A program made the translations under genes and the position numbers. From IMG/VR virus record IMGVR_UViG_3300045988_016831: a DNA stretch of 43,153 bases; one strand, written 5' to 3'. The notes below the pieces were generated by a model, which saw only the letters and a program-made list of their open reading frames with translations, was not told the DNA's origin and did not search any database. Shown here in pieces: positions 1 to 34,495 of this stretch (position 1 is the first letter of the stretch; each line of letters opens with the position of its first letter). The stretch is from a virus.

Positions 1-64
1 AGCTCCACGGTCGGAGAGATGTGGGGCAGCTCCACGGTCAGAAAGATGTATGACAGCTCCACGG
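1..64. repeat. Terminal overlap identical to 43090..43153 (circular closure or terminal redundancy), lying inside the 27-bp tandem array
   Basis: Direct comparison: agctccacggtcggagagatgtggggcagctccacggtcagaaagatgtatgacagctccacgg occurs at both ends. Confidence 0.95.
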
Positions 65-165
65 CAAGGGATTTTAAAAACTATCCAAATATAAAAATCC
101 ACATCCCGAAGGGTGGTAAATTTGAGATGGTTGAGCATGAGGAGAAAAAACCATGCGATTCATAG
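1..165 (+). CDS. C-terminal end of the nonapeptide-repeat protein (continuation of 42397..43153 across the junction)
   Basis: Frame 1 is open from nt 1 (SSTVGEMWG SSTVRKMYD SSTARDFKNYPNIKIHIPKGGKFEMVEHEEKKPCDS) to TAG at 163..165. It is in phase with the ORF leaving the window at 43153 once the 64-nt overlap is removed. Confidence 0.75.
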   Translation, partial: SSTVGEMWGSSTVRKMYDSSTARDFKNYPNIKIHIPKGGKFEMVEHEEKKPCDS

Positions 166-413
166 ACGAAGAGACACTGAAAAAGAGCATAGAAAAGTGG
201 CTGAACCCAGATCCAAACGCAGACAGAATGGTGGATATAGATGACATAGCGGTGTCTGTGATGATGGAGATTGAGGAGCAGCCGACGGCCTATGATGTGG
301 AGAAGGTTGTAAAACAGTTAGACACATACATAACAAAGCTGGTCGGAAGAAATTCTGCACTATATCAGACAGTTATGCAGATTGTGAAAGGCGGTGGAGT
401 AGATGGCAATTAA
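153..413 (+). CDS. Hypothetical protein (86 aa)
   Basis: ORF with GAGGAG upstream of the ATG. Overlaps neighbours in operon style. Confidence 0.6.
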   Translation: MRFIDEETLKKSIEKWLNPDPNADRMVDIDDIAVSVMMEIEEQPTAYDVEKVVKQLDTYITKLVGRNSALYQTVMQIVKGGGVDGN

Positions 414-1032
414 ACCCATATTATTCAACACCGAAATGGTGCGGGCGATTTTGGACGGCCAGAAAACCTGTACCCGGCGGGTGGTAAAAACCAGACGAAA
501 AGACGCTTGTGGGTTCTACGTCACGAAAAGACCGGACGGCTCATTTACCGGGGTATATGAATATGACGAAGATGAGAGAATGTTCGAAAATCAGTTGATT
601 CAGTATAAGCCGGGAGACATCCTTTATGTTAGAGAAACATGGTGCGGACTTCCGGTCAATGAAGCAGGTCATTTTCGGGGACATCCCATCTATTATTACA
701 AGGCAGATGGAGATCTGCGACCTGAAGGTTGGAGAGGCGCTTGGCGACCATCTATCCACATGCCGAAAGAAGCGGCGAGAATCTGGCTGAAGGTTACGGA
801 TGTACGGGTGGAGCGGCTACAGGATATCACATTAGAGCAGATTTACAGAGAAGGCGCGGAAGTAGAGGAACCGTTCGTGCTGAACGGAGAAGAAAAAAGA
901 TATGCTTTTTCAGTATTGTGGAACAGCACCATCAAGAAATCTGACCTTGACCGCTACGGATGGGCTGCGAACCCGTGGGTCTGGGTGATAGAATATGAAC
1001 GGTGCGAAAAGCCGGAGGAGGTAAGATCATGA
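403..1032 (+). CDS. ASCH (PUA-like) domain protein
   Basis: N-terminus MAIKPILFNTEMVRAILDGQKTCTRR matches the ASCH signature common in phage early regions. Confidence 0.6.
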   Translation: MAIKPILFNTEMVRAILDGQKTCTRRVVKTRRKDACGFYVTKRPDGSFTGVYEYDEDERMFENQLIQYKPGDILYVRETWCGLPVNEAGHFRGHPIYYYKADGDLRPEGWRGAWRPSIHMPKEAARIWLKVTDVRVERLQDITLEQIYREGAEVEEPFVLNGEEKRYAFSVLWNSTIKKSDLDRYGWAANPWVWVIEYERCEKPEEVRS

Positions 1033-1457
1033 ACGAAAATGAAGCGATTGAACAGCTCCAGGGCGAATACCTTGCAACGAACGGGACAGAAACTCCGGCG
1101 AGGGTGCGGTATCACAACGAAGCACTGGACACGGCTATAGCGGCGCTGAAAGAGGTACAGGAGTACCACGCGACAGGGCACACGCCGAAGATGGTACGTG
1201 AGTTGAGACGTGGGTATCTGAATGCGCACAAACAGGCTGTGCAGCACGCTACGGAACTGGATGAGTATATTAGGCTTGGTGGGCTGGAAGTGTGCAAGGA
1301 GGCTGTGGAGAAGCAGACAGGTAAAAAGCCTACTTCGGTACTTGGGATTTTTGGCGGAACAGAAAACGAATGCAAGAATTGCGGAAACGATGTGAGGTAT
1401 AGAGACGAATACTGCCGGTGGTGTGGTCAGAAATTAGATTGGAGTGATGGGGAATGA
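1029..1457 (+). CDS. Hypothetical protein with C-terminal zinc ribbon
   Basis: ATG 1029 preceded by GGAGGAGG. C-terminal CKNCG...CRWCG motif. ATGA overlap with the next gene. Confidence 0.6.
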   Translation: MNENEAIEQLQGEYLATNGTETPARVRYHNEALDTAIAALKEVQEYHATGHTPKMVRELRRGYLNAHKQAVQHATELDEYIRLGGLEVCKEAVEKQTGKKPTSVLGIFGGTENECKNCGNDVRYRDEYCRWCGQKLDWSDGE

Positions 1458-1750
1458 GTGAAATGGTGAGATGTATCGACTGCAAGCACCTTATACGTGA
1501 TGGCTGGTGCGAACGGATAGCAGACAGTCCACATGAAGATCTGGATCGACGGTGTGCCTTTTTCCAGACAGTCACCAAGGCCGACCGTATCCGGTGCATG
1601 ACTGATGATGAGCTTGCGGCGCTTCTGTGCGGTATATCTTCGCATCTAGAGGAAGGGCGTTGCGAGCTGTGCATTGCGGCACCGTATTGCAGAGCAGGAC
1701 ACACCGGATTCCTGGACTGGCTGAAGGAGGAAGTCAATGCCAAAGACTAA
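1454..1750 (+). CDS. Cys-rich hypothetical protein (98 aa)
   Basis: ORF coupled by ATGA overlap. Multiple Cys pairs (CIDCKH..., CELCIAAPYC). Confidence 0.55.
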   Translation: MSEMVRCIDCKHLIRDGWCERIADSPHEDLDRRCAFFQTVTKADRIRCMTDDELAALLCGISSHLEEGRCELCIAAPYCRAGHTGFLDWLKEEVNAKD

Positions 1751-1886
1751 AGAAATCTGCCAAGACTGCGGAAAAATATTTATCGGTGGGCCAGATGCTT
1801 TTTTCTGCAAGGAGTGCAGATACCGCAGAGTGGAAGAAGGAAAAATGAGAGGAAGATTGAGACGTGAGCAAAAGTCGAGCAAGTAA
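1737..1886 (+). CDS. Small zinc-ribbon protein (49 aa; below the ORF-track cutoff)
   Basis: ATG 1737 with AGGAGG 8 nt upstream. Translation MPKTKEICQDCGKIFIGGPDAFFCKECRYRRVEEGKMRGRLRREQKSSK carries CxxC...CxxC. Confidence 0.5.
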   Translation: MPKTKEICQDCGKIFIGGPDAFFCKECRYRRVEEGKMRGRLRREQKSSK

Positions 1887-1970
1887 ACAGAACGGCTACT
1901 TTGCCGCCGTGTCAAGGCAGAGAAACGATGTATATAAGACCCAGAGAGGGAGAAAGAGGAGGAAAGGTTG

Positions 1971-2873
1971 ATGCATATAGGGTTACATGACGCGGAAAAA
2001 GACCACATGAAGCATAAGACATTCCCCAATCTGGCACTTATGAAGCTATCAGCATGGCACAAGGAGCGAGGGGATGTTGTGGAATGGTGGAACCCCCTGT
2101 ATCATTATGACAGGGTGTATAGCAGCAAGGTGTTCGATTTCACTCCGGAAAATCCGTACCTGCCAGAAAATGCAATTCGTGGCGGTACTGGGTATAGGGA
2201 TATACCCATAAACAAGACACTTCCGGATGAAGTGGATGATACGAAACCAGATTACAGTATATATCCGGACTGCGATTATGCGATCGGGTATCTTACCCGT
2301 GGATGTGTCAGGAATTGCCGATGGTGTGTGGTGCCAAAGAAAGAGGGGCAGATCAGGCCATACCGACATTGGGAAGAAATTGTTCGGACGGATACGGATA
2401 AGCTGGTGTTAATGGACAATAACATATTGGCCTGTGCTCACGGCCTGTCTGAATTGGATGCACTTGTGGGCTCTGGATATCGCATAGATCTCAACCAGGG
2501 TATGGATGCAAGACTTGTGACTGATGATGTGGCGCATCTGTTAGCAAGGATGAAATGGATACGATATATCCGGTTCTCGTGCGACACCAAAGCACAGATT
2601 GAGCCAGTTTGCAAGACTATAGAATCACTTGGACGATACGGGGTCAAGCCATATCGGGTGTTCATCTATTTGCTGGTCACTCCTGATATACAAGATGCCG
2701 TGAAGAGAGTAGAGGCATTGAAAAAGTATGCAGGAATTAACCTGTATGCGCAGGCGGAGCGGAATGAGCGGCTTGGTATCATACCGAGTGCTGAACAGCT
2801 TGAATTTGCACAGAGATATATATACGGTGGGTCATACCGAAAAATGACATGGGAAGAATATAAGAGACGATAG
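1971..2873 (+). CDS. Radical SAM superfamily protein (unknown substrate)
   Basis: CVRNCRWC (CX3CX2C) at nt 2304..2327, preceded by a Rossmann-like N-region (PNLALMKLSAWHKERGDVV). GAGGAGG 8 nt before ATG 1971. Confidence 0.65.
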   Translation: MHIGLHDAEKDHMKHKTFPNLALMKLSAWHKERGDVVEWWNPLYHYDRVYSSKVFDFTPENPYLPENAIRGGTGYRDIPINKTLPDEVDDTKPDYSIYPDCDYAIGYLTRGCVRNCRWCVVPKKEGQIRPYRHWEEIVRTDTDKLVLMDNNILACAHGLSELDALVGSGYRIDLNQGMDARLVTDDVAHLLARMKWIRYIRFSCDTKAQIEPVCKTIESLGRYGVKPYRVFIYLLVTPDIQDAVKRVEALKKYAGINLYAQAERNERLGIIPSAEQLEFAQRYIYGGSYRKMTWEEYKRR

Positions 2874-2928
2874 AAAGGAGACCAACCTCCGGCCGGGGTA
2901 AGGGTATACCGGGTTTCCAGAAAAAATC

Positions 2929-3774
2929 ATGAAAACAAAATGTGAGATTTACAGAGACTCTATGCAAAACTACAAGAAGTATGGGATTCCGCGGGCACAG
3001 CTTGTCATTGCTGATGTGCCTTACAATGTCGGCTCTAACTTTTACGGAAGCAGTCCTCAATGGTACAACGGCGGTGACAACGCCAATGGCGAAAGCAAGC
3101 TGGCTGGAAAGGCGGCGTTTAATTCGGATTTCAACTTCAACCTGTATGAGTATTTCCATTTCTGCTCCCGAATGCTGCGGAAAGACGACACCAAGAAATC
3201 TATTAGAGGGCGGAGCAGTGACAGCCCGTGCATGATTGTATTCTGCGCCTTTGAGCAGTTGCAGACCTTGATAGCCGCAGCTTCCAAGCATGGATTCGTC
3301 CACTATATACCGCTGGTATTCGTTAAAAACTATAGCCCGCAGGTCTTAAAGGCAAATATGCGGGTGGTAGGAGCCACGGAGTACGCCCTGGTATTCTATC
3401 GGGACAGGCTTCCGAAGTTCAGAAACGGTGCACAGCGGGACGAGAACGGCAAGACAATCCGGGGCACCGGGAAGATGGTGTTTAACTGGTTCTCCTGGGA
3501 GAGGGACGGGAAGGACATCCCGAAGATTCATCCGGCACAGAAGCCCGTTGCAATCCTGAAAAGACTGATCGAGATCTTTACAGATCCGGGTGATGTGGTA
3601 ATTGACCCGTGCTGCGGCTCCGGCTCAACGCTCCGGGCGGCAGCAGAACTTGGGCGCAATGCCTACGGGTTCGAGATTGACCGGACATTCTATGAGCGGG
3701 CGAAAAATGAAATGCTGGTATTCGAGGAGGACGGCCAGATGGAAATTACAGATTTTTTGGAGGATAAGGCATGA
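2929..3774 (+). CDS. Beta-class amino (N6-A or N4-C) DNA methyltransferase
   Basis: Catalytic-type motif IADVPYN near the N-terminus. HPAQKPVAILKRLI and SAM motif DPCCGSGST near the C-terminus (motif IV before motif I). Confidence 0.8.
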   Translation: MKTKCEIYRDSMQNYKKYGIPRAQLVIADVPYNVGSNFYGSSPQWYNGGDNANGESKLAGKAAFNSDFNFNLYEYFHFCSRMLRKDDTKKSIRGRSSDSPCMIVFCAFEQLQTLIAAASKHGFVHYIPLVFVKNYSPQVLKANMRVVGATEYALVFYRDRLPKFRNGAQRDENGKTIRGTGKMVFNWFSWERDGKDIPKIHPAQKPVAILKRLIEIFTDPGDVVIDPCCGSGSTLRAAAELGRNAYGFEIDRTFYERAKNEMLVFEEDGQMEITDFLEDKA

Positions 3775-4058
3775 ACATCTACATCAGCGGCCCCATGCGG
3801 GGCGTAGACAACTACCGTGAGAAATTTGAGCGGGCAAAAAGAATCATCGAAGAAGGCGGACACAAGGTTATCAATCCGGCAGGACTTGACCTGTATGGCC
3901 TTACCAGGGAGCAAATACTCAACGTGGATCTGGTGCTGCTGGACTTGTGTGACACAATCTATATGCTGAAAGGCTGGGAGCAGTCCTGCGGAGCAAACCG
4001 GGAATACGGGTATGCACTTGGCAAGGGGCTGGACATTATGCTTGAGAGGGACGAGTGA
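3771..4058 (+). CDS. DUF4406 / nucleoside 2-deoxyribosyltransferase-like protein
   Basis: MNIYISGPMRG... and ...MLKGWEQSCGANREYGYA match DUF4406 signatures. ATGA overlaps with both flanking MTase genes. Confidence 0.6.
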   Translation: MNIYISGPMRGVDNYREKFERAKRIIEEGGHKVINPAGLDLYGLTREQILNVDLVLLDLCDTIYMLKGWEQSCGANREYGYALGKGLDIMLERDE

Positions 4059-5746
4059 TGATTAACGGAGAGATTATCGTCGATAACTTTGCCGGTGGAG
4101 GCGGAGCGTCTACAGGGATAGAGATTGCGACCGGGTACAGTGTTGATATAGCCATCAACCATGACCCGGAAGCTATCCGGATGCATAAGTCCAACCACCC
4201 AAACACAAAGCATTACTGCGAGGACGTCTGGCAGGTGGATCCGGTCAAGGCCTGTAAAGGGAATCCGGTTGCGCTTGCGTGGTTTTCGCCGGATTGCAAG
4301 CATTTCAGCAAGGCCAAGGGTGGAAAGCCCAAGGACAAGTTCATTCGCGGCCTGGCTTGGGTAGCCTGCCGATGGGCGGGGCTTGTTAGGCCGAGGGTGA
4401 TCATGTTGGAAAATGTGGAAGAGTTCAAGACCTGGGGTCCGCTGAACCGAGGCCATAGACCGATTAAGGCCAAGCAGGGCGTGACATTCCGGCGATTTAT
4501 TCAGCAGTTGGAAGATCTGGGCTATGAGGTACAGTTCCGGGAGCTGGTGGCTGCTGACTATGGAGCGCCAACCATGCGAAAGAGATTCTTCCTGATTGCC
4601 CGGTGTGATGGTAGGCCGATTGTGTGGCCGGAGCCTACACATGGGCCAGTGGACAGCGAAGCGGTCAAGGCCGGACTGCTCAAGCCCTATGTTGGAGCAT
4701 ACACACAGATAGATTTCAACCGGCCTTGCCCGTCAATTTTTGACACGTCGGAAGAAATCAAAGAGAAGTACGGAATCCGGGCGGTCAGACCGCTTGCACC
4801 AAAGACGATGGACAGAATAGCCCGTGGCTTGAAAAAATTTGTGTTGGACAACCCGGAACCGTTTATTGTCCAATGTAATCATGGAGGGGAACGTAAAGCG
4901 GGCGATATCCGGGAACCGCTTCCGACAATTACGGGCAAGCATGGATATGGGATTGCAGTGCCCAAACTGGCCCCGATAATCGATAAGGCTTATGGCGGTA
5001 ATTATGCCGGCAGTGGAAGCAGGGCAGATGAACCTATAGACACCATCACGACGGTAGACCACAATCGGCTGGTGGAAGCGACCCTTGCACCGTGTATCAT
5101 GTGTAACAACGAGAATAATGTCGGGGCGAATGTAGAAAACCCGCTCCCGACTATTACGACAGGGAACCGGAACTATCATTCCGAGACAGCCAAGGACGAG
5201 GTGCGCGGGCAGACTATCACGGATCCGATTATGACGGTGGACTCTTCCAACAGGTACGGACTGGTGACATCATTCCTGAGTAAGTTCTACAAGTCTGGCA
5301 CAGGACAGGACTTGCGGGAGCCGCTACATACCGTGACCACATCCCCGGGACACTTCGGGGAGGTAAGAGCCTTTTTGATTAAATACTACGGGCAAGGCAC
5401 CGGGCAGGATATTAAAGACCCGCTTGATACAGTTACAGCACAGGATCGCTTCGGACTTGTAACGATTGACGGCACAGATTACAAGATAGTGGATATTGGC
5501 CTGCGAATGCTGGAACCGCGAGAGTTATACGGCTGTCAGGGATTTCCGGAAGATTATATCATCGACCACGACTACACAGGAAAATCGTATAGCCGGAGCG
5601 AGCAGGTCAAGCGGTGCGGGAATGCCGTGTGTCCGCCGATTCCTGCGGCGCTGGTGCGGGCTAATCTTCCAGAGCTGTGCGTTGCAAAAAGAACAGGGAA
5701 CATCATGATACGGGAAGAGGACACAGGCCAGTTACGGCTGGCGTAA
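4055..5746 (+). CDS. DNA (cytosine-5)-methyltransferase with expanded variable region
   Basis: Motif I DNFAGGGG, motif IV SPDCKHFS, motif VI MLENV, motif VIII QFRE..ADYGAP, motif IX QGFP, motif X GNAVCPP. About 185 aa between VIII and IX carry six [DE]P[LI]xT[IV]T-type repeats. Confidence 0.9.
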   Translation: MMINGEIIVDNFAGGGGASTGIEIATGYSVDIAINHDPEAIRMHKSNHPNTKHYCEDVWQVDPVKACKGNPVALAWFSPDCKHFSKAKGGKPKDKFIRGLAWVACRWAGLVRPRVIMLENVEEFKTWGPLNRGHRPIKAKQGVTFRRFIQQLEDLGYEVQFRELVAADYGAPTMRKRFFLIARCDGRPIVWPEPTHGPVDSEAVKAGLLKPYVGAYTQIDFNRPCPSIFDTSEEIKEKYGIRAVRPLAPKTMDRIARGLKKFVLDNPEPFIVQCNHGGERKAGDIREPLPTITGKHGYGIAVPKLAPIIDKAYGGNYAGSGSRADEPIDTITTVDHNRLVEATLAPCIMCNNENNVGANVENPLPTITTGNRNYHSETAKDEVRGQTITDPIMTVDSSNRYGLVTSFLSKFYKSGTGQDLREPLHTVTTSPGHFGEVRAFLIKYYGQGTGQDIKDPLDTVTAQDRFGLVTIDGTDYKIVDIGLRMLEPRELYGCQGFPEDYIIDHDYTGKSYSRSEQVKRCGNAVCPPIPAALVRANLPELCVAKRTGNIMIREEDTGQLRLA

Positions 5747-5764
5747 AGTGGGGAGGTGAATCTG

Positions 5765-6004
5765 ATGGAGAGGCTTAAACCGTGCCCATTTTGCGGCGGA
5801 AACTTGGAGTTTGTCCGGGAGGAGCATACAAACAAATATGGAAACCGTGTTGTATCGCAATATTGGCTCCATGATGATACAGACTGCATATTAAACGATA
5901 TCTGTATGCCGTTTACTTTGGGGGCTGGTGACGCAGATATAGAAACCGGATATGGCGGAGAATACGCCGAAAAATGGAACAGGAGGGCAAACGATGACAA
6001 ATAG
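5765..6004 (+). CDS. Lar-family restriction alleviation protein
   Basis: MERLKPCPFCGG...AEKWNRRA matches the Lar family. GGGGAGG upstream of ATG 5765 (the ORF track starts at GTG 5756). Confidence 0.7.
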   Translation: MERLKPCPFCGGNLEFVREEHTNKYGNRVVSQYWLHDDTDCILNDICMPFTLGAGDADIETGYGGEYAEKWNRRANDDK

Positions 6005-6024
6005 AGAAGCGCATAAAGGCGAAC

Positions 6025-6582
6025 TTGCGGAGGGCAATGAATGACCGGGGGGGGTATCTGAACGGATCCGGATACCCTGACCCGACAGCATACAAGGCGA
6101 TAAAAGAAACGGAGGAAAAAGAGATGGAAGCGAGAAGCGGAGAGCTGTGGAGATATGCAGCTGGAACAACTGAACGAGAGGGTGTAGTGGTAGGTACAGA
6201 TGGCTTTGTGGTGACGATTCTGCCACTATCGGACATCTGCTTTTATGGGTCAATCGAGATAACGACAAGCGCCGGGACTAAGTATGTTCAGCCGCTACGG
6301 TTGACCTACACCACCAAGAAAAATCTGCTGGACCACCTGCGAGATGTGCCAGAGGATACGATGCGCGAGATTAAGACCGCCATCAGCGCAGGGCTTGGCC
6401 TTACTGCAGAGCCGAGCAGGATAGCAACCGTGCCGGACGATGAGGCACGGGATGAAGTGGAAAGGCTTAAGACCGAGAATCAGAGGTTACAAAGTGAGCT
6501 AATAGAATCCACAGTCAGAGCAAAAGTCATGACGGAGCAGTACAACACGCTCCTGGAGCGGTTCTGTGATTCGCTGCGGTAG
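6025..6582 (+). CDS. Hypothetical protein with C-terminal coiled coil
   Basis: ORF. Start ambiguous between TTG 6025 and ATG 6037. GSGYPDPTAYKAI motif and a heptad-like C-terminus. Confidence 0.5.
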   Translation: MRRAMNDRGGYLNGSGYPDPTAYKAIKETEEKEMEARSGELWRYAAGTTEREGVVVGTDGFVVTILPLSDICFYGSIEITTSAGTKYVQPLRLTYTTKKNLLDHLRDVPEDTMREIKTAISAGLGLTAEPSRIATVPDDEARDEVERLKTENQRLQSELIESTVRAKVMTEQYNTLLERFCDSLR

Positions 6583-6672
6583 CAAGTTACCAGCAAGTCA
6601 GAAAATCCAGTAAATAAGCCGTAAAACGACTATGAATCAGGTAATGAGTAAGTTGTCAGCAAATTAAAAATC

Positions 6673-6710
6673 GGGCGGTGAAGTCCCCGACCAAAGTTCT
6701 TTCACCGCCC
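6673..6710. other. Stem-loop in the 180-nt gap upstream of the tyrosine recombinase
   Basis: gggcggtgaa (6673..6682) pairs with ttcaccgccc (6701..6710). There is no T-tract on the + side and an A/T run on the - side. Confidence 0.35.
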
Positions 6711-6762
6711 TGCGCTGGGATTATTATACCATGATTCCCCGGCGAACACAAGGAGGAGAGTT

Positions 6763-7791
6763 ATGGTAGTAGTAGACATCCGGGAAAAGGTAATACATGA
6801 GATAGTCGGAGCAATGGCGCCGATGCTGGACGCTGTCAGGCTTAATATGCTTGAGGGAGCGATCCGCGGTGCGCTACGGGGTATGAAACTGGAAGAAGAG
6901 GATACGGCGTTGACTACAGAGTTGGACGGCACGGACTATATGATCCAGTGCTTCTGCGCCAATAAGAAACTGGAGGGCTGCGCCGATGGAACACTGGAGC
7001 GGTACCGGGATACGGCCAAGAAGTTCTTCCAGACTGTGAACAAGGGATACAAGACGGCCACAAAAGACGATATCAAGGCCTATCTGGCTATTCGGTCTCA
7101 ACAGGTGGCAGCCAATACGGTTATCAACGAAAAGAGAAACCTGTCCAGCTTCTTCACATGGCTGCATGAAGAGGGATACATTAACAAGAATCCTATCAAG
7201 GGCATCAAGGTTCGCGCTGAGGACGTGGAACTGATATACTTTACAACCCAGGAAGAAATAGCGATCCGCGATACCTGTTGCAATCTGCGCGACAAGGCAT
7301 TGATAGCGTTTCTGCTTTCAACAGGTGTCCGGGTGGGTGAATTGGCGGCACTGGATAGGTCAGACGTGGATCTGGAATCCAACAGCGTCACATTCCGCGG
7401 GGAGAAGTCCAGAAAAGGCAAGTTTCGCACGGTATATCTGGACGAATATGCAAGGCGGTATCTGCGGGCATATCTCGTGGCAAGGACGGATTTTAACCCC
7501 GCGCTGTTTGTTTCTACCAGGTGTTACGATGGGCAGCCCAGGCGGCTGACAGAAGCAGGTATTGAGAAGATTACAAAGACAGTTACAGAAAGGGCAGGAG
7601 TCACCAAGAAGGGAACTGTACATATTTTCCGCAAGACTTTTGCAACCAGAATGGCAGATCGCGGATGCCCGCTAAACGTGATTCAAGATCTGCTTGGTCA
7701 TGCGGATCTTGGCACAACGATGAAGTGCTATGTGGCAAAAATTCCGGAACGGAACCGGGAAGAGTGGCGGCGGTATGTGTTTGCCGCATAG
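6763..7791 (+). CDS. Tyrosine site-specific recombinase (XerC/D-phage integrase family)
   Basis: STGVRVGEL (Arg), HIFRKTFAT (HxxR) and LLGHADLGTTMKCY (His, Tyr nucleophile). AAGGAGG before the ATG. Confidence 0.85.
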   Translation: MVVVDIREKVIHEIVGAMAPMLDAVRLNMLEGAIRGALRGMKLEEEDTALTTELDGTDYMIQCFCANKKLEGCADGTLERYRDTAKKFFQTVNKGYKTATKDDIKAYLAIRSQQVAANTVINEKRNLSSFFTWLHEEGYINKNPIKGIKVRAEDVELIYFTTQEEIAIRDTCCNLRDKALIAFLLSTGVRVGELAALDRSDVDLESNSVTFRGEKSRKGKFRTVYLDEYARRYLRAYLVARTDFNPALFVSTRCYDGQPRRLTEAGIEKITKTVTERAGVTKKGTVHIFRKTFATRMADRGCPLNVIQDLLGHADLGTTMKCYVAKIPERNREEWRRYVFAA

Positions 7792-7805
7792 AGAGGAGTG
7801 AGAGG

Positions 7806-8105
7806 ATGCGGAACCGTTACAAGAAACTAGAAGATCATGGTGTGTACCCGGAGGATGTTAAGACGCTTCTGGAGCGGTGCAAAAAAGCTACACCAGAGGA
7901 GCGCCACTGGCTACTCCACGCTTGCATTGACGCTTCACCAGAGGGAATGGAGTTTCTGGTATACGAAAGCCTTGCAATGGGGAAGAGCTATGACCAGATA
8001 TCCCGGACAGATTATATTCCGATGAAGTCCGATGACTTCTACGGATACAGACGCAAGGCAATGTCCAAGTTCTATGATTTCCTGCGGATGTATGGCCGGG
8101 TCTGA
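7806..8105 (+). CDS. Small HTH protein, possible sigma-region-4/ArpU-like late regulator
   Basis: ATG 7806 after GAGAGGAG. The sequence ...ESLAMGKSYDQISRTDY...YGYRRKAMSKF resembles region-4-type HTH. Position upstream of the packaging genes fits. Confidence 0.4.
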   Translation: MRNRYKKLEDHGVYPEDVKTLLERCKKATPEERHWLLHACIDASPEGMEFLVYESLAMGKSYDQISRTDYIPMKSDDFYGYRRKAMSKFYDFLRMYGRV

Positions 8106-8163
8106 ACGTGGTGAGGAGAAAAACGTGGGGATATAGGATAATAGAGGAAGATGGAGGAGTAGC

Positions 8164-9294
8164 ATGGATGTTGTGAATCTCAAGATTAAGGACTTGAAGC
8201 CTTACGAGAAGAATCCACGGAAGAACGATGGTGCTGTCGAATATGTGGCGAATAGCATTAAGGAGTTCGGATTCAAGGTTCCTATCGTGGTTGATAAGGA
8301 TAATGTCATTGTGGCCGGACACACACGCTATAAGGCGGCGAAAAAGCTGGGGCTGAAAGAAGTCCCGGCTATCGTTGCAGATGACTTGACAGATGAACAG
8401 GTCAAGGCCTTTCGATTGGCTGATAATAAGGTGGCAGAGCAGGCCGAATGGGATATTGATCTCTTGGGTGAGGAACTTTCTGACATATTGGATATTGACA
8501 TGGAGGACTTCGGCTTTTCTTTTTCAGAGGAAGATGTGGAAGTGGTGGAGGATGCTCCCGTAATAGATCCGAAAAAAGACCCTGTTACGAAACTTGGAGA
8601 TATGTGGAAAATGGGGGGGCATCTTCTACTGTGCGGAGATAGCACCAATATCACTGACGTGGAAAGGCTTATGGGCGGAGAAAAAGCTGACATGGTATTC
8701 ACAGATCCGCCTTACGGGTACGAGTACCAAAGTAATAGCAGAGGAGAGAAATTTGAGGTACTGAAGAACGATGACAAGATCCTCGATTTCTTTCCAAATA
8801 TTCAGATGGTGTGCAATGGTTTTGTATTCATATGCACCACATGGAAAGTACTTGATAAGTGGCTTCCGTTATTCAAAAAATACCATAATCTTACAAATAT
8901 GATTATATGGAGCAAAGGTGGCGGAGGCATTGGCGATCTGGCGCATACATTCGCCACCGATTATGAAGTTATCCTTTGCTCAAATAACGGGAGAGAAATC
9001 ACAGGCAAGCGAATCGGATCTGTATGGGCGATAAAAAAGGATTCTGGCAACAGGTATGTACACCCAACGCAGAAGCCAGTGAAGCTGTCTGAATTTGCGA
9101 TACGGAACACCACTGAAAGGGGGGAAATTGTCCTTGATCTGTTCGGTGGTTCTGGATCTACGTTGATAGCATGCGAGCAGCTTGATAGGCGCTGCAGGAT
9201 GATGGAGTACGACCCTATATACTGTGATGTCATCGTGGAAAGATGGGAACAATTTACAGGAGAAAAAGCGGAGCTTGTCAGCGGGAATGAATAA
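8164..9294 (+). CDS. ParB-like nuclease domain fused to an amino DNA methyltransferase
   Basis: LKPYEKNPRKND...AGHTRYKAAKKLG (ParB N-domain), FTDPPYG, HPTQKPVKL and DLFGGSGST. Confidence 0.85.
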   Translation: MDVVNLKIKDLKPYEKNPRKNDGAVEYVANSIKEFGFKVPIVVDKDNVIVAGHTRYKAAKKLGLKEVPAIVADDLTDEQVKAFRLADNKVAEQAEWDIDLLGEELSDILDIDMEDFGFSFSEEDVEVVEDAPVIDPKKDPVTKLGDMWKMGGHLLLCGDSTNITDVERLMGGEKADMVFTDPPYGYEYQSNSRGEKFEVLKNDDKILDFFPNIQMVCNGFVFICTTWKVLDKWLPLFKKYHNLTNMIIWSKGGGGIGDLAHTFATDYEVILCSNNGREITGKRIGSVWAIKKDSGNRYVHPTQKPVKLSEFAIRNTTERGEIVLDLFGGSGSTLIACEQLDRRCRMMEYDPIYCDVIVERWEQFTGEKAELVSGNE

Positions 9295-9316
9295 GATGGA
9301 GTAGCGAGATGGTAGG

Positions 9317-10864
9317 ATGGCGAACGAAAAAAACTTAGTGCCACAAAGCGAACGAACAAAGAGCGAACAAAGAGAAATTGCAAAAAAAGGCGGAATTAAA
9401 TCTGGTCAGGTTCGCCGTCAGAAAAAGACACTTTCCGACCTTGCAAAAATGATAGCTGACAACCCGGCCCCGGATGCCGCCAGACGAAAGCTGGAACAGA
9501 TAGGCATAGAAGCCGAGGATGCCAGCAACAACGCTGTAATCGTGGCTTCTGTGTACTCTAAGGCCGTCAAGGGCAATATGCAGGCCGTTGAAAAGTGGGA
9601 ACAGCTCGTAGCGGAGACCAAGGAAGATGCCGGGAAGTATGAGCTGCCCGCCCGGGTGCTTGGTAAGGCGTTCGTGGATATCAACAGGCAGATCCGCCCT
9701 AACATGGAATATGTGTTTGAGGGCGGACGTGGCGGTCTGAAATCCTCTTTCGTGTCGTTGAAAATCATAGAGCTGATTAAGAACAACCCGCAGATGCACG
9801 CCTGTATCACTCGTCAGGTGGCCGGAACGCTGAAAGATTCCGTGTACGCTCAGATGAAATGGGCTATCCATGAGCTGGAGCTGGACGAGGAGTTCAACTG
9901 CAAGGTGTCGCCGCTGGAGATTATCTACATCAAGACAGGACAAGTAATCTACTTCCGAGGTCTGGACGATGAAACGAAGCTGAAATCCATCAAGCCGCCA
10001 TTTGGCTATATCGGTATTCTCTGGAAAGAGGAGAAAGACCAGATGAAGGGCGACGCCCAGGAGCGATCGGTTAATCAGTCCGTGCTCCGTGGTGGTAATG
10101 AATCATATGATTTCTCGTCCTATAATCCGCCAAAGAGCAAGAGCAACTGGGTACACCGCATTAAGCTCAAACCGAATCCGAAGCGTGTCATTCATCATTC
10201 CTGTTACACCGAAGCTCCGCCGGAGTGGTTAGGCCAGAAGTTCATTGATGACGCGGAGCACCTGAAAGAGGTCAACCCGGAAGCCTATGAGCATGAATAC
10301 CTGGGCGTAGCGAACGGAGACGGCGGCAATGTGTTCGAGTATATTGAACTCCGAGAGATTACAGACGAAGAGATCGTCCAGATGGACAAGATATACCAGG
10401 GCGTAGACTGGGGCTGGTATCCTGACCGATACGCTTTTGTGCGCGTCTACTATGACCATGCACGGGAGACTCTGTACTTCATTGACGAGATTGGGGAAAA
10501 CAAGAAAGCGAACAGTTACACGGCGGCGAGAATCAAGGAACGCGGATATGATGACTATGCGATTATCTGCGACAGTGCGGAGCCAAAGTCAGTAGCTGAC
10601 TACCGAGACGAGGGACTACCCGCCAGAGGAGCAGAAAAAGGCCCCGGAAGCGTCGAATACTCCATGAAGTGGCTGCAAGGAAAGAAGCTGGTCATGGATC
10701 CACGCCGTACACCGGAAGCCTGCAAAGAGTTCACAGAGTACGAGTATGACCGGGACAAGGATGGAAATGTAATCAGCGGATACCCGGACAAGAACAATCA
10801 CTTCATCGACGCAACACGATACGCAACAGAGCCGATATGGAAGAGAAGGGGAAGCAGCGCATAA
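9317..10864 (+). CDS. terL: Terminase large subunit (PBSX-type) with ~110-aa basic N-terminal extension
   Basis: Walker-A-like GGRGGLKSS, later nuclease-region acidic motifs, and position directly before the portal. The N-terminus KGGIKSGQVRRQKK resembles small-terminase N-termini. Confidence 0.8.
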   Translation: MANEKNLVPQSERTKSEQREIAKKGGIKSGQVRRQKKTLSDLAKMIADNPAPDAARRKLEQIGIEAEDASNNAVIVASVYSKAVKGNMQAVEKWEQLVAETKEDAGKYELPARVLGKAFVDINRQIRPNMEYVFEGGRGGLKSSFVSLKIIELIKNNPQMHACITRQVAGTLKDSVYAQMKWAIHELELDEEFNCKVSPLEIIYIKTGQVIYFRGLDDETKLKSIKPPFGYIGILWKEEKDQMKGDAQERSVNQSVLRGGNESYDFSSYNPPKSKSNWVHRIKLKPNPKRVIHHSCYTEAPPEWLGQKFIDDAEHLKEVNPEAYEHEYLGVANGDGGNVFEYIELREITDEEIVQMDKIYQGVDWGWYPDRYAFVRVYYDHARETLYFIDEIGENKKANSYTAARIKERGYDDYAIICDSAEPKSVADYRDEGLPARGAEKGPGSVEYSMKWLQGKKLVMDPRRTPEACKEFTEYEYDRDKDGNVISGYPDKNNHFIDATRYATEPIWKRRGSSA

Positions 10865-17540: not shown

Positions 17541-17792
17541 AATGTGGTGCCACAACATATATGCCATATGTAGTATGATGGGAGTGTGAAAAGTTATGAC
17601 TTTAAGCCGAAAGGCTTTGCCGATAGTTTCCCTCCTTTCAAGGATATGCGTCCTTAAAAGAAACCAGAAAACAATGTCCACTTACCATTGCTCTGGGAGG
17701 TTGAAAAGCGGATGCAATTTCCGACGCATATCATCGGTTCATCTCGTCGACCGAACACCTCATATCTAATAGGGCGGGCAATACCCGCCCAA

Positions 17793-17865
17793 GCCCCTGT
17801 AGCTCAACTGGTAGAGTAACTCCCCTGTAAGGAGCTGGTTCCGGGTTCGAATCCTGGCGGCGGCT
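17793..17865 (+). tRNA. tRNA-like gene, best read as tRNA-Thr(UGU) with non-canonical C33
   Basis: 73-nt hand-folded cloverleaf. Acceptor gcccctg/cggcggc has 6 of 7 pairs. D arm gctc-aactggta-gagt. Anticodon arm actcc-cctgtaa-ggagc. T arm ccggg-ttcgaat-cctgg. No encoded CCA. Confidence 0.55.
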
Positions 17866-17971
17866 GTTGCAATTCGATAATCTCAGGTGGTGGATTTTGT
17901 CGCAACCACGCGCCCTACGGGCTAAAAGAGATGCAGGGAAGGCGACGCCTGCGGGATTGTTGAATTGCTAT

Positions 17972-32947: not shown

Positions 32948-34495
32948 TTAAATCCTCAATTTTACTGACATTCTAAACGGTACATGACTCTTCGCTTCTT
33001 CGTGCGTCCTTGAATATTCGATTCGTTCTATTACAGTTTTCAGAAAAGCGTTCTTTTCTTTGGCAGACAGCGAAGTGCTTTCTATGGCCTTAATCGCATC
33101 GGAAAGCATGGCAATCTTTTTTTGAAGATGTTCCCTCTGTGGTTTCTCGCTCCGCAACTGTTCCAGAGCTTTTTCAGCATTCCCTTTGCTTTCCGTATTT
33201 TTCAGATTCAACTTGTCGAAGATCTCCTTCGGCATTTCTCCATCCGCATACTTTTCCCATAGATGTAACTCTTTCAGTTCTAGCGTTTGCACCTGCTTCT
33301 CAAGCATCTGGATCTGGGCTTCTTTTTCTCGACCATCGCTTTCTTCTTCGAGCTCTATCTTGCAATCCTCAATAGAGCAGAGCAAGGATGATACTAATGC
33401 CTGCGAATATTCGGAAAATAGGCAAGAAGCAGCTTCGCAATTTGTAAGACCAGAACATACAAGTCGAGGATTATATTTGAACTTTCCATTCCGGAGCCCC
33501 GTGTGGTACATCATGGCTCTTCCGCAGATACCGCAATACGCAATTCCAGCAACAGGGTTGACCTGCTCATAGCTATCACGCTTCCGACTCCGGTTTTTGA
33601 GCAGCTCTTGGACGTGAACAAAAACATCATGGTCTATCATCCGCGGGTGCCGCGCTGGGAAAAGCTCATAGTCTTTTGAGCGCGGCCTGGATTTGACAAC
33701 TTCCCCGTCTTTCACGCGTGAGACATCGCCACGCCTTTTCCAGGCAATCATCTGGTCGTAGTGGTCATTCTTGGCAATATCGAGGAGCATCTGAACCGTC
33801 CAGGGCTTCCCGGCTGGTGAATTTGCTCCCATAGCCTTTAATTCTTTTGCCACAGTATATGGCAGCACGCCTGCGTTAAGTCGGTCGAAGATATACCGGA
33901 CTGTTGGCGCATCGGGGCCGAAATCCAGTGTAGGCCGCTTCCTCTTCCCATCCTGCACAGTTACACGGACAAAACCGAACGGCGGCTTTGAAGCGATATA
34001 CCATCCATCCTTGACAGACTGATATTTTCCACGGGCAAGAATTTTTTTCGTATATTCCAGATATTCATTTCCTCTCTTAAGTTCCCTCTCAAAGAAATCC
34101 CGGTCGTAGTCATCCTCAATATCATATATCTTTTGAGGTGTGATCACCTTGGTATGGGTATACCGCAGTATCTTAATCAGTCGCCCAGCGTCCTCTAGGT
34201 CTCCTCTGGATAATCGCTGAACCTCTACCACCAGCACGCCCTTAATACCAGGTGATTCCACCTGACGGAGAACCTTGCAGAATTCCGGGCGATCTGCTAT
34301 GGTCTCGCCGGATACGACCTCCCGATAAAAGTTCTTTGCCGGGATATCGTGGACAAGGTTCCGGCCTATCCACTCCCGGATAATCTCTTCGTGCTTTTGA
34401 AGCACATCCTCTACCGATAAATATGGGTCATCGGATCTGGATTTTCGGAGATAGACAAGGATCTCCTCTGGTTTGAATTCGTAAGATTGATACAC
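32948..34495 (-). CDS. int: Large serine recombinase (integrase)
   Basis: The resolvase-type N-domain motif VYLRKSRSD carries the catalytic Ser. Recombinase domain, zinc ribbon CGICGRAM...C, and C-terminal coiled coil. GTG start with AAGGAGG upstream. Confidence 0.9.
   Translation of the reverse strand: MYQSYEFKPEEILVYLRKSRSDDPYLSVEDVLQKHEEIIREWIGRNLVHDIPAKNFYREVVSGETIADRPEFCKVLRQVESPGIKGVLVVEVQRLSRGDLEDAGRLIKILRYTHTKVITPQKIYDIEDDYDRDFFERELKRGNEYLEYTKKILARGKYQSVKDGWYIASKPPFGFVRVTVQDGKRKRPTLDFGPDAPTVRYIFDRLNAGVLPYTVAKELKAMGANSPAGKPWTVQMLLDIAKNDHYDQMIAWKRRGDVSRVKDGEVVKSRPRSKDYELFPARHPRMIDHDVFVHVQELLKNRSRKRDSYEQVNPVAGIAYCGICGRAMMYHTGLRNGKFKYNPRLVCSGLTNCEAASCLFSEYSQALVSSLLCSIEDCKIELEEESDGREKEAQIQMLEKQVQTLELKELHLWEKYADGEMPKEIFDKLNLKNTESKGNAEKALEQLRSEKPQREHLQKKIAMLSDAIKAIESTSLSAKEKNAFLKTVIERIEYSRTHEEAKSHVPFRMSVKLRI

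Follow-up and report, generated by a model that had tools for sequence, protein, structure and literature searches.

The stretch of DNA analysed here (the window) is the viral contig IMG/VR IMGVR_UViG_3300045988_016831, 43,153 bp in length, in which nearly all genes lie on the + strand. The analysis concerns the gene block at 403-6004, found at the end of the early region and directly 5' of the packaging genes, and its continuation to 9294. The block contains genes for an ASCH-like protein, three small zinc-ribbon or Cys-rich proteins, a radical S-adenosylmethionine (SAM) protein (rSAM), a beta-class N6/N4 DNA methyltransferase (MTase; this gene is designated N6MT), a DUF4406 protein, a C5 cytosine DNA MTase (C5MT) and a Lar-like protein. 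An earlier note on this DNA, made from the letters alone, had described a tightly packed + strand block, and every gene that it listed was found in its place. The start/stop overlaps were likewise found, at 403-413, 1029-1032, 1454-1457, 1737-1750, 3771-3774 (ATGA) and 4055-4058 (GTGA). The rSAM gene is flanked by gaps of 81 nt (5') and 55 nt (3'), and the Lar-like gene by gaps of 9 nt (5') and 20 nt (3'). Promoter-like and terminator-like sites in 1-9400, including the surroundings of the rSAM gene, did not rise above shuffled sequence.

The rSAM gene (1971-2873, + strand) encodes a protein of 300 aa. Its likely start is the ATG at 1971, and the alignments of homologues begin at residue 2. 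The CX3CX2C motif reads CVRNCRWC, and its three cysteines (C113, C117 and C120, numbered from 1968) were invariant in 64 homologues. The match to Pfam PF04055 was below the gathering threshold (18.5 bits against 29.5). Despite this, the radical SAM identity named in the earlier note is sound, because it is carried by the invariant motif, by the match to phrog_9298 (8e-74), by the PF04055 matches of 41 of the 64 family members (E<=0.01, best 9e-8) and by the fold. The AlphaFold model (pLDDT 96.5) comprises an N-terminal flavodoxin/B12-binding-like half-domain and a (beta/alpha)6 core, that is, a partial TIM barrel; the top PDB fold matches were the radical SAM enzymes BlsE and SuiB, with probability 1.0 and a TM-score of only 0.43. 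An existing entry, phrog_9298, covers the family under the name 'radical SAM domain protein'.

Further searches with the rSAM protein were less specific. Among the 64 homologues there was no conserved Cys outside CX3CX2C, and hence no Cys for an auxiliary cluster; no match to TRAM or UPF0004 was obtained, and no other nucleic-acid-binding domain. When assignment to class B was assessed, the pattern and the model resembled a truncated B12-binding-like domain, with no PF02310 match and with 16 bits for TIGR04013 (cut-off 251). Apart from this sub-threshold match, the protein had no specific NCBIfam family, and it had no PADLOC match. As a single-sequence query against solved structures it gave no useful match; the nearest PDB sequence relatives were RimO and MiaB, aligned in the cluster loop only (E about 2e-3). 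Fold matches in BFVD included a methylthiotransferase and 'COG1032 Fe-S oxidoreductase' proteins, with QueE-like proteins as remote matches only. The family is large: clustering at 90% identity gave more than 7,578 clusters, and at 50% identity there were 1,446 representatives with E<=1e-10. Its members, 26-50% identical, occur in phages of Bacillota, Bacteroides and Marinitoga and in archaeal Methanomassiliicoccales viruses, and the homologues closest to the window's protein come from genomes of Lachnospiraceae and other Clostridia. No riboswitch or structured RNA was found 5' of the rSAM gene, an exact-sequence look-up in one collection returned no record for the window's own rSAM and ASCH proteins, and no paper that characterises phrog_9298 or DUF4406 was found in the literature.

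Longer rSAM homologues were considered as a clue to function. Their partners (ParB_N, an ABC transporter or SPP1_Dit) are mutually inconsistent and look like products of read-through or assembly artefacts, and the fusions were therefore not used. P0122 (812 aa) is an apparent fusion of rSAM, ParB_N and a helix-turn-helix domain; the other long forms look like artefacts. One prophage (L012, on the same Faecalicatena contorta contig as L089) carries two diverged rSAM paralogues in near-tandem, at 4631-5419 and 6001-6903; the window's protein shares 36% and 72% identity with them. Cultured strains with homologous prophage regions are Faecalicatena contorta 2789STDY5834876, Enterocloster citroniae DSM 19261 and Petralouisia muris NM01_1-7b.

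Three DNA MTases are encoded between 403 and 9294, all on the + strand. N6MT (2929-3774) matched PF01555 (E=5e-28, 98.9 bits) and the PADLOC family MTase_II, and the order of its motifs (DVPY near residue 30, DPCCGSGS near residue 228) places it in the beta class. C5MT (4055-5746, 563 aa) matched PF00145 (E=6e-26, 92 bits) and carries motifs I, IV, VI, VIII, IX and X as FAGGGG (residue 12), PDC (79), ENV (119), TMRKR (173), RELYGCQGFP (489) and GNAV (522). Between motifs VIII and IX lie six tandem repeats of ~33 aa with the pattern [DE]P[LIM]xT[IV]T, which resemble target-recognition domains (TRDs). The C5MT homologue of Roseburia phage Jekyll also has six repeats, of which units 2 and 4 differ; read at the sequence level, this suggests that TRD modules are shuffled and that C5MT is possibly multispecific. 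A DUF4406-C5MT fusion in Jekyll was ruled out by translation and tblastn, the Jekyll MTase having no DUF4406 part. The third MTase had been described in the earlier note as a ParB fusion, and the domain search of 8164-9294 found a ParB_N domain fused to an N6_N4_Mtase domain. No endonuclease partner of N6MT was identified among the neighbouring genes, which makes it an orphan, and none of the three MTases has an identifiable endonuclease partner.

The DUF4406 gene (3771-4058, + strand) encodes a nucleoside 2-deoxyribosyltransferase-like protein. It matched PF14359 at E=7e-24 (84.6 bits, cut-off 22), and PF05014 at E=2e-6 with 28.2 bits, just under the cut-off of 28.8. The alignment contains an invariant GWxxSxGAxxE motif, whose Glu we take to be the catalytic Glu of the deoxyribosyltransferase/DNPH1 fold; the motif points to a chemistry that would act on N-glycosidic bonds. 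In its matches to PF05014 and phrog_355 and in the invariant Glu of SxGAxxE, the protein is like the nucleoside 2-deoxyribosyltransferase/DNPH1 (Rcl) fold; it is unlike it in having only 95 aa and no solved-structure relative that could be found by sequence.

The Lar-like gene (5756-6004, + strand) encodes a zinc-ribbon protein, putatively a factor in restriction alleviation. It is a borderline match to the family (PF14354, 27.9 bits against a cut-off of 28.6; TIGR03655, 26.4 against 39.6), and the label is reasonable because the protein bears a CPFCGG zinc ribbon and a C-terminal WNRR. Of the identities proposed in the earlier note, those of the N6/N4 MTase, DUF4406, the C5 MTase and the ParB-MTase fusion were strongly borne out, and those of ASCH, Lar and the small zinc-ribbon or Cys-rich proteins are weaker and acceptable.

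Relatives of the window were compared by blastn and tblastn, with flanks that were 80-95% identical. What sets close relatives apart is the insertion or deletion of whole genes, and the breakpoints fall at gene borders. L179, the nearest relative (rSAM 93% identical), has 1865-4049 in common with the window, i.e. rSAM-N6MT-DUF4406 in the same order, and lacks both 4050-6023 (C5MT and Lar) and 6579-7756 (the tyrosine recombinase described below). In L164, 1865-1965 and 2872-4065 are in common: exactly the rSAM open reading frame (ORF) is missing, and N6MT-DUF4406 is kept. In L162 and L165, in which the terminase large subunit (TerL) is about 90-92% and DUF4406 78-95% identical, 1865-1965 and then DUF4406 are in common. 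The space between them is occupied by a different MTase in L162 and by small ORFs in L165, and both relatives are without rSAM, the window's N6MT and C5MT. In phage Jekyll, ASCH-like, Lar and C5MT genes are present, and rSAM and DUF4406 are not. The rSAM gene behaves as a single-gene cassette.

A conserved 100-nt junction (1865-1965) precedes this cassette and ends in the ribosome-binding site AGAGGAGGAAAGG before the rSAM start. It was 87-93% identical in four relatives with differing downstream cassettes. We take it to be a mosaic breakpoint because it is conserved while the downstream cassette differs, and from its sequence it looks like a recombination junction between cassettes. No significant RNA structure was predicted in it (z=-0.2).

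Co-occurrence of the genes was assessed in 156 rSAM loci (from 80 IMG/VR contigs and 80 genome contigs, mostly Clostridia) and in 80 diverse DUF4406 loci. A detectable MTase was adjacent to rSAM in 23/156 loci, within +-3 genes in 45/156 and within +-5 genes in 56/156; DUF4406 occurred within +-6 genes of rSAM in 8/156. Reciprocally, an MTase adjoined DUF4406 in 10/80 loci, and rSAM was found within +-6 genes in 0/80. The commonest rSAM neighbours in the 156 loci were a Rep_ORF2/G2P-like gene upstream (49), RecU downstream (about 45) and an adjacent PAPS-reductase-like gene (17). The latter encodes a PP-loop (SGGKDS) and a C-terminal Cys cluster, as in L071 at 6867-8057; no such gene adjoins rSAM in the window.

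In phage records with annotated neighbours, rSAM homologues lie within or directly after replication/recombination modules, among small early genes. An MTase is directly adjacent to rSAM in one of six independent annotated lineages (an Oscillospiraceae phage); it is two genes away in Bacteroides LoVEphage (L181) and six genes away in Bacteroides phage BKO1-TP3. No annotated MTase is present near rSAM in the stretch shown of Clostridium tetani phage phiCT453B (L182), Methanomassiliicoccales virus vir215 (L183) or Marinitoga camini virus 1 (L185). The order radical SAM-MTase-DUF4406-MTase, whose conservation in other phages the earlier note had put up for checking, is not kept: the cassettes separate from one another among L179, L164, L162 and L165, and the reciprocal counts given above are low.

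From these observations, we put the probability at roughly 0.7 that 403-9294 is a mosaic accessory region of a temperate phage, composed of independent cassettes with ordinary protective methylation and no joint pathway. The region would be a hypervariable accessory segment of a ~43-kb gut temperate siphovirus, most similar to Lachnospiraceae phages and prophages, and would form a string of single-gene cassettes recombining independently at conserved junctions, not a one-pathway operon. The most likely role of the three orphan MTases is SAM-dependent methylation of phage DNA after its replication, which would protect it from host restriction enzymes; the assignment of this role draws on what is known of orphan MTases in phages. 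Type I restriction may in addition be weakened by the Lar-like protein. The earlier note had regarded MTases plus Lar as ordinary anti-restriction self-protection, and an MTase-rich accessory region with a Lar-like gene 5' of the packaging genes fits this. rSAM and DUF4406 would then be autonomous accessory genes: each would act, if at all, on a substrate present in any host, without the other and without an MTase, and either may singly perform unusual chemistry. Our working guess, because the rSAM gene is placed in DNA-metabolism modules across phyla, is that the rSAM protein would modify or repair nucleic acid alone.

Several points weigh against the mosaic reading. The overlaps between N6MT, DUF4406 and C5MT (ATGA, GTGA) suggest translational coupling in the window genome, and DUF4406 lies directly 3' of an N6/N4 MTase in several Lachnospiraceae phages, even at 42-45% DUF4406 identity. 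MTases also take up about 10% of the gene slots at rSAM positions +1/+2, about twice their share of about 5% at +3 to +8. The MTase profiles were built from the sampled loci and may miss other MTase classes, which makes the MTase counts lower bounds, and many of the sampled loci are related, so that the counts are not independent events. There are thus weak signals of a loose functional affinity between MTases and DUF4406; these linkage signals are weak because they are confounded by relatedness and by the sharing of the same variable region by both gene types.

The alternative that survives best, as a tentative possibility of low probability, takes the rest of the island as ordinary and sees in rSAM alone a new stand-alone nucleic-acid enzyme that modifies or repairs DNA or RNA in viruses of anaerobes. 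The size of the family and its spread through viruses of Bacillota, Bacteroides, Marinitoga and Methanomassiliicoccales are in its favour, as is the single-gene cassette behaviour, which suggests self-sufficiency. The recurrent place in or after replication/recombination modules and the mildly basic family median pI of 8.6 are only hints of a nucleic-acid substrate, and the RNA- and protein-modifying enzymes MiaB and RimO are the nearest PDB sequence relatives in the cluster loop only. However, the case for the substrate comes from genomic context alone, the protein has neither auxiliary-cluster Cys nor TRAM or another nucleic-acid-binding domain, and the structural matches are weak (TM 0.43) and lead to BlsE, which acts on a nucleoside antibiotic intermediate, and to SuiB, which acts on a peptide; a small-molecule or anti-defence role fits equally. 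The more specific proposal, in which the phrog_9298 protein works as a self-sufficient enzyme in viruses of anaerobes and installs or removes an undescribed nucleic-acid modification independently of MTases, we consider slightly less probable still.

It is distinctly improbable that DUF4406 is the functional partner of amino-MTases, for instance by hydrolysing methylated or modified dNMPs from degraded DNA, with rSAM unrelated. DUF4406 does stand directly 3' of an N6/N4 MTase in L162/L163, L164, L166, L172, L176 and L179, and in the same order with a gap of ~270 nt in L173. The pairs include different MTases as well as the DUF4406 copies of only 42-45% identity noted above, and the ATGA overlap in the window agrees with them. 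Against this, a detectable MTase adjoins only 10 of the 80 diverse DUF4406 loci, many DUF4406 genes lie among unrelated small genes, and the positive cases are mostly related Lachnospiraceae phages.

Least probable of all is the reading favoured in the earlier note, namely that rSAM, DUF4406, ASCH and the MTases form one new base-hypermodification or nucleotide-pool pathway (in which rSAM might, for example, build on a methylated base, with DUF4406 catalysing nucleoside exchange or hydrolysis): the genes share one direction and are closely packed, N6MT, DUF4406 and C5MT being linked by ATGA/GTGA overlaps, L179 keeps rSAM-N6MT-DUF4406 in the same order, and DUF4406 has the invariant Glu in GWxxSxGAxxE that we equate with a catalytic residue, but the components are gained and lost singly among close relatives, reciprocal co-occurrence is 8/156 and 0/80, an MTase adjoins rSAM in only 23/156 loci, rSAM homologues of other phyla are without these partners, no hydroxymethylase, kinase, DpdA/TGT, QueC/D/E or polymerase gene was found in the genome, and rSAM and DUF4406 fall outside the PADLOC defence families, rSAM also having no specific NCBIfam family.

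The region is accordingly best regarded as an ordinary mosaic anti-restriction/accessory region of a gut temperate phage, and does not belong in a list of new modification pathways. Among enzyme families of gut phages that await characterisation, that of the rSAM cassette is one of the more abundant, with a confident fold and no close structural relative; identification of its substrate would close a real gap in what is known of the phages of anaerobes.

The small genes 5' of the junction are all on the + strand. An 86-aa protein of phrog_20593 (153-413), function unassigned, is also encoded 5' of the ASCH-like gene in relatives. The ASCH-like protein (403-1032, 209 aa, phrog_874) scored below the cut-off of Pfam PF04266 (16.6 bits, E=0.013; cut-off 21.2). 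In fold searches with a low-confidence model (pLDDT 63), the first ten PDB matches were ASCH or ASCH-like (YqfB, PH0355, 3s9x, ZmASCH), and an identical protein in nr is named 'MAG TPA: ASCH domain protein [Caudoviricetes sp.]'; a sequence search of solved structures gave no useful match. Next come a 142-aa protein with a C-terminal zinc ribbon (1029-1457; phrog_10714, Zn_ribbon and DZR matches below threshold), a 98-aa Cys-rich protein with 9 Cys (1454-1750) and no family match, and a 49-aa CxxC...CxxC zinc-ribbon protein with 4 Cys (1737-1886), recognised from its sequence. NCBIfam and PADLOC gave no match for DUF4406, the ASCH-like protein or the small proteins.

Downstream of the Lar-like gene, a 185-aa protein of unassigned function (6025-6582, + strand) is kept in relatives L179 and L164. 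It is followed by a tyrosine recombinase (6763-7791, + strand; PF00589, E=9e-30), which is outside any modification function and stands directly 5' of the genes for a 99-aa small protein, the ParB-MTase fusion and the terminase. TerL (9317-10864, + strand) forms the downstream boundary and the start of the late genes, which extend from 9317 to ~32.6 kb. The - strand encodes a serine integrase at 32948-34495, which with the other - strand genes that adjoin it presumably forms the lysogeny module; the genome therefore carries two recombinases, this integrase and the tyrosine recombinase. Early + strand genes start from ~36.7 kb (exonuclease, NinB/Orf protein, RusA resolvase, DnaD-like replication initiator), and this early block extends round the ends of the contig to take in 1-9294. 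Among isolated phages, Roseburia phage Jekyll is the closest, with a DNA-level match confined to its C5 MTase. Within the structural-gene block, 17643-17960 (+ strand) contains three side-by-side Rfam matches above the gathering score: a RAGATH-21 RNA (17643-17732), a tRNA (17793-17865) and a skipping-rope RNA (17877-17960).

The window was finally compared with known systems. The pre-replicative or hypermodification pathways described so far depend on genes for a polymerase, a hydroxymethylase, a kinase, a transglycosylase or deazapurine synthesis (PMC5889632, PMC8989533). Among the early genes of the window genome there was no DNA polymerase, nucleotide-metabolism, thymidylate-synthase-like, hydroxymethylase, kinase, transglycosylase/DpdA/TGT, QueC/D/E or deazapurine gene. 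The set for thymidine hypermodification (dUMP hydroxymethylase, 5-hmdU DNA kinase and, in most cases, a phage DNA polymerase) was not found, the remaining genome consisting of structural, lysis and lysogeny genes. Genes for 7-deazaguanine (DpdA/TGT-like, QueC/QueD/FolE) did not appear among the early genes with an annotation, and the unassigned ORFs are too small to encode them, the small ORFs having been scanned in part. The window resembles the thymidine hypermodification systems (PMC5889632, PMC8989533) and the 7-deazaguanine systems with QueE and DpdA (bioRxiv 10.1101/2023.04.13.536721) in that a phage rSAM gene lies near DNA-modifying genes, but unlike them it has no hydroxymethylase, kinase or DpdA/QueC/QueD, and QueE-like proteins are only remote fold matches.

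With the MiaB/RimO methylthiotransferases and the COG1032 B12-binding-like rSAM enzymes, the window's rSAM protein shares an N-terminal flavodoxin-like domain followed by the CX3CX2C core, and its best PDB sequence matches are RimO and MiaB. It differs from MiaB/RimO in its length of only 300 aa, in the lack of auxiliary-cluster Cys and of TRAM, and in PDB TM-scores of at most 0.43. The defining features of the 7-deazaguanine pathway, thymidine hypermodification and methylthiotransferases are lacking; of those of class B rSAM methylases, a resemblance to a truncated B12-binding-like domain is seen, without a PF02310 match.

The likeness is closer to the accessory regions of temperate phages. 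Like the lambda nin region and the accessory regions of lambdoid and Firmicutes siphoviruses, the segment lies between replication genes (DnaD-like, NinB, RusA) and packaging, and small cassettes are swapped at gene borders via conserved junctions; unlike the nin region, its content is MTase-dominated and includes an rSAM gene. Orphan MTase clusters are known in temperate phages, among them the multispecific C5 MTases of Bacillus phages SPR, phi3T and rho11s and ParB-MTase fusions 5' of the terminase. In C5MT, the six repeats would be the basis of any comparable multispecificity. The window shares with such clusters several MTases with no identified endonuclease at the early-to-late transition, a C5MT with tandem TRD-like repeats and a ParB_N fusion near TerL, and the island thereby matches the pattern of MTase-rich accessory regions known from temperate phages.

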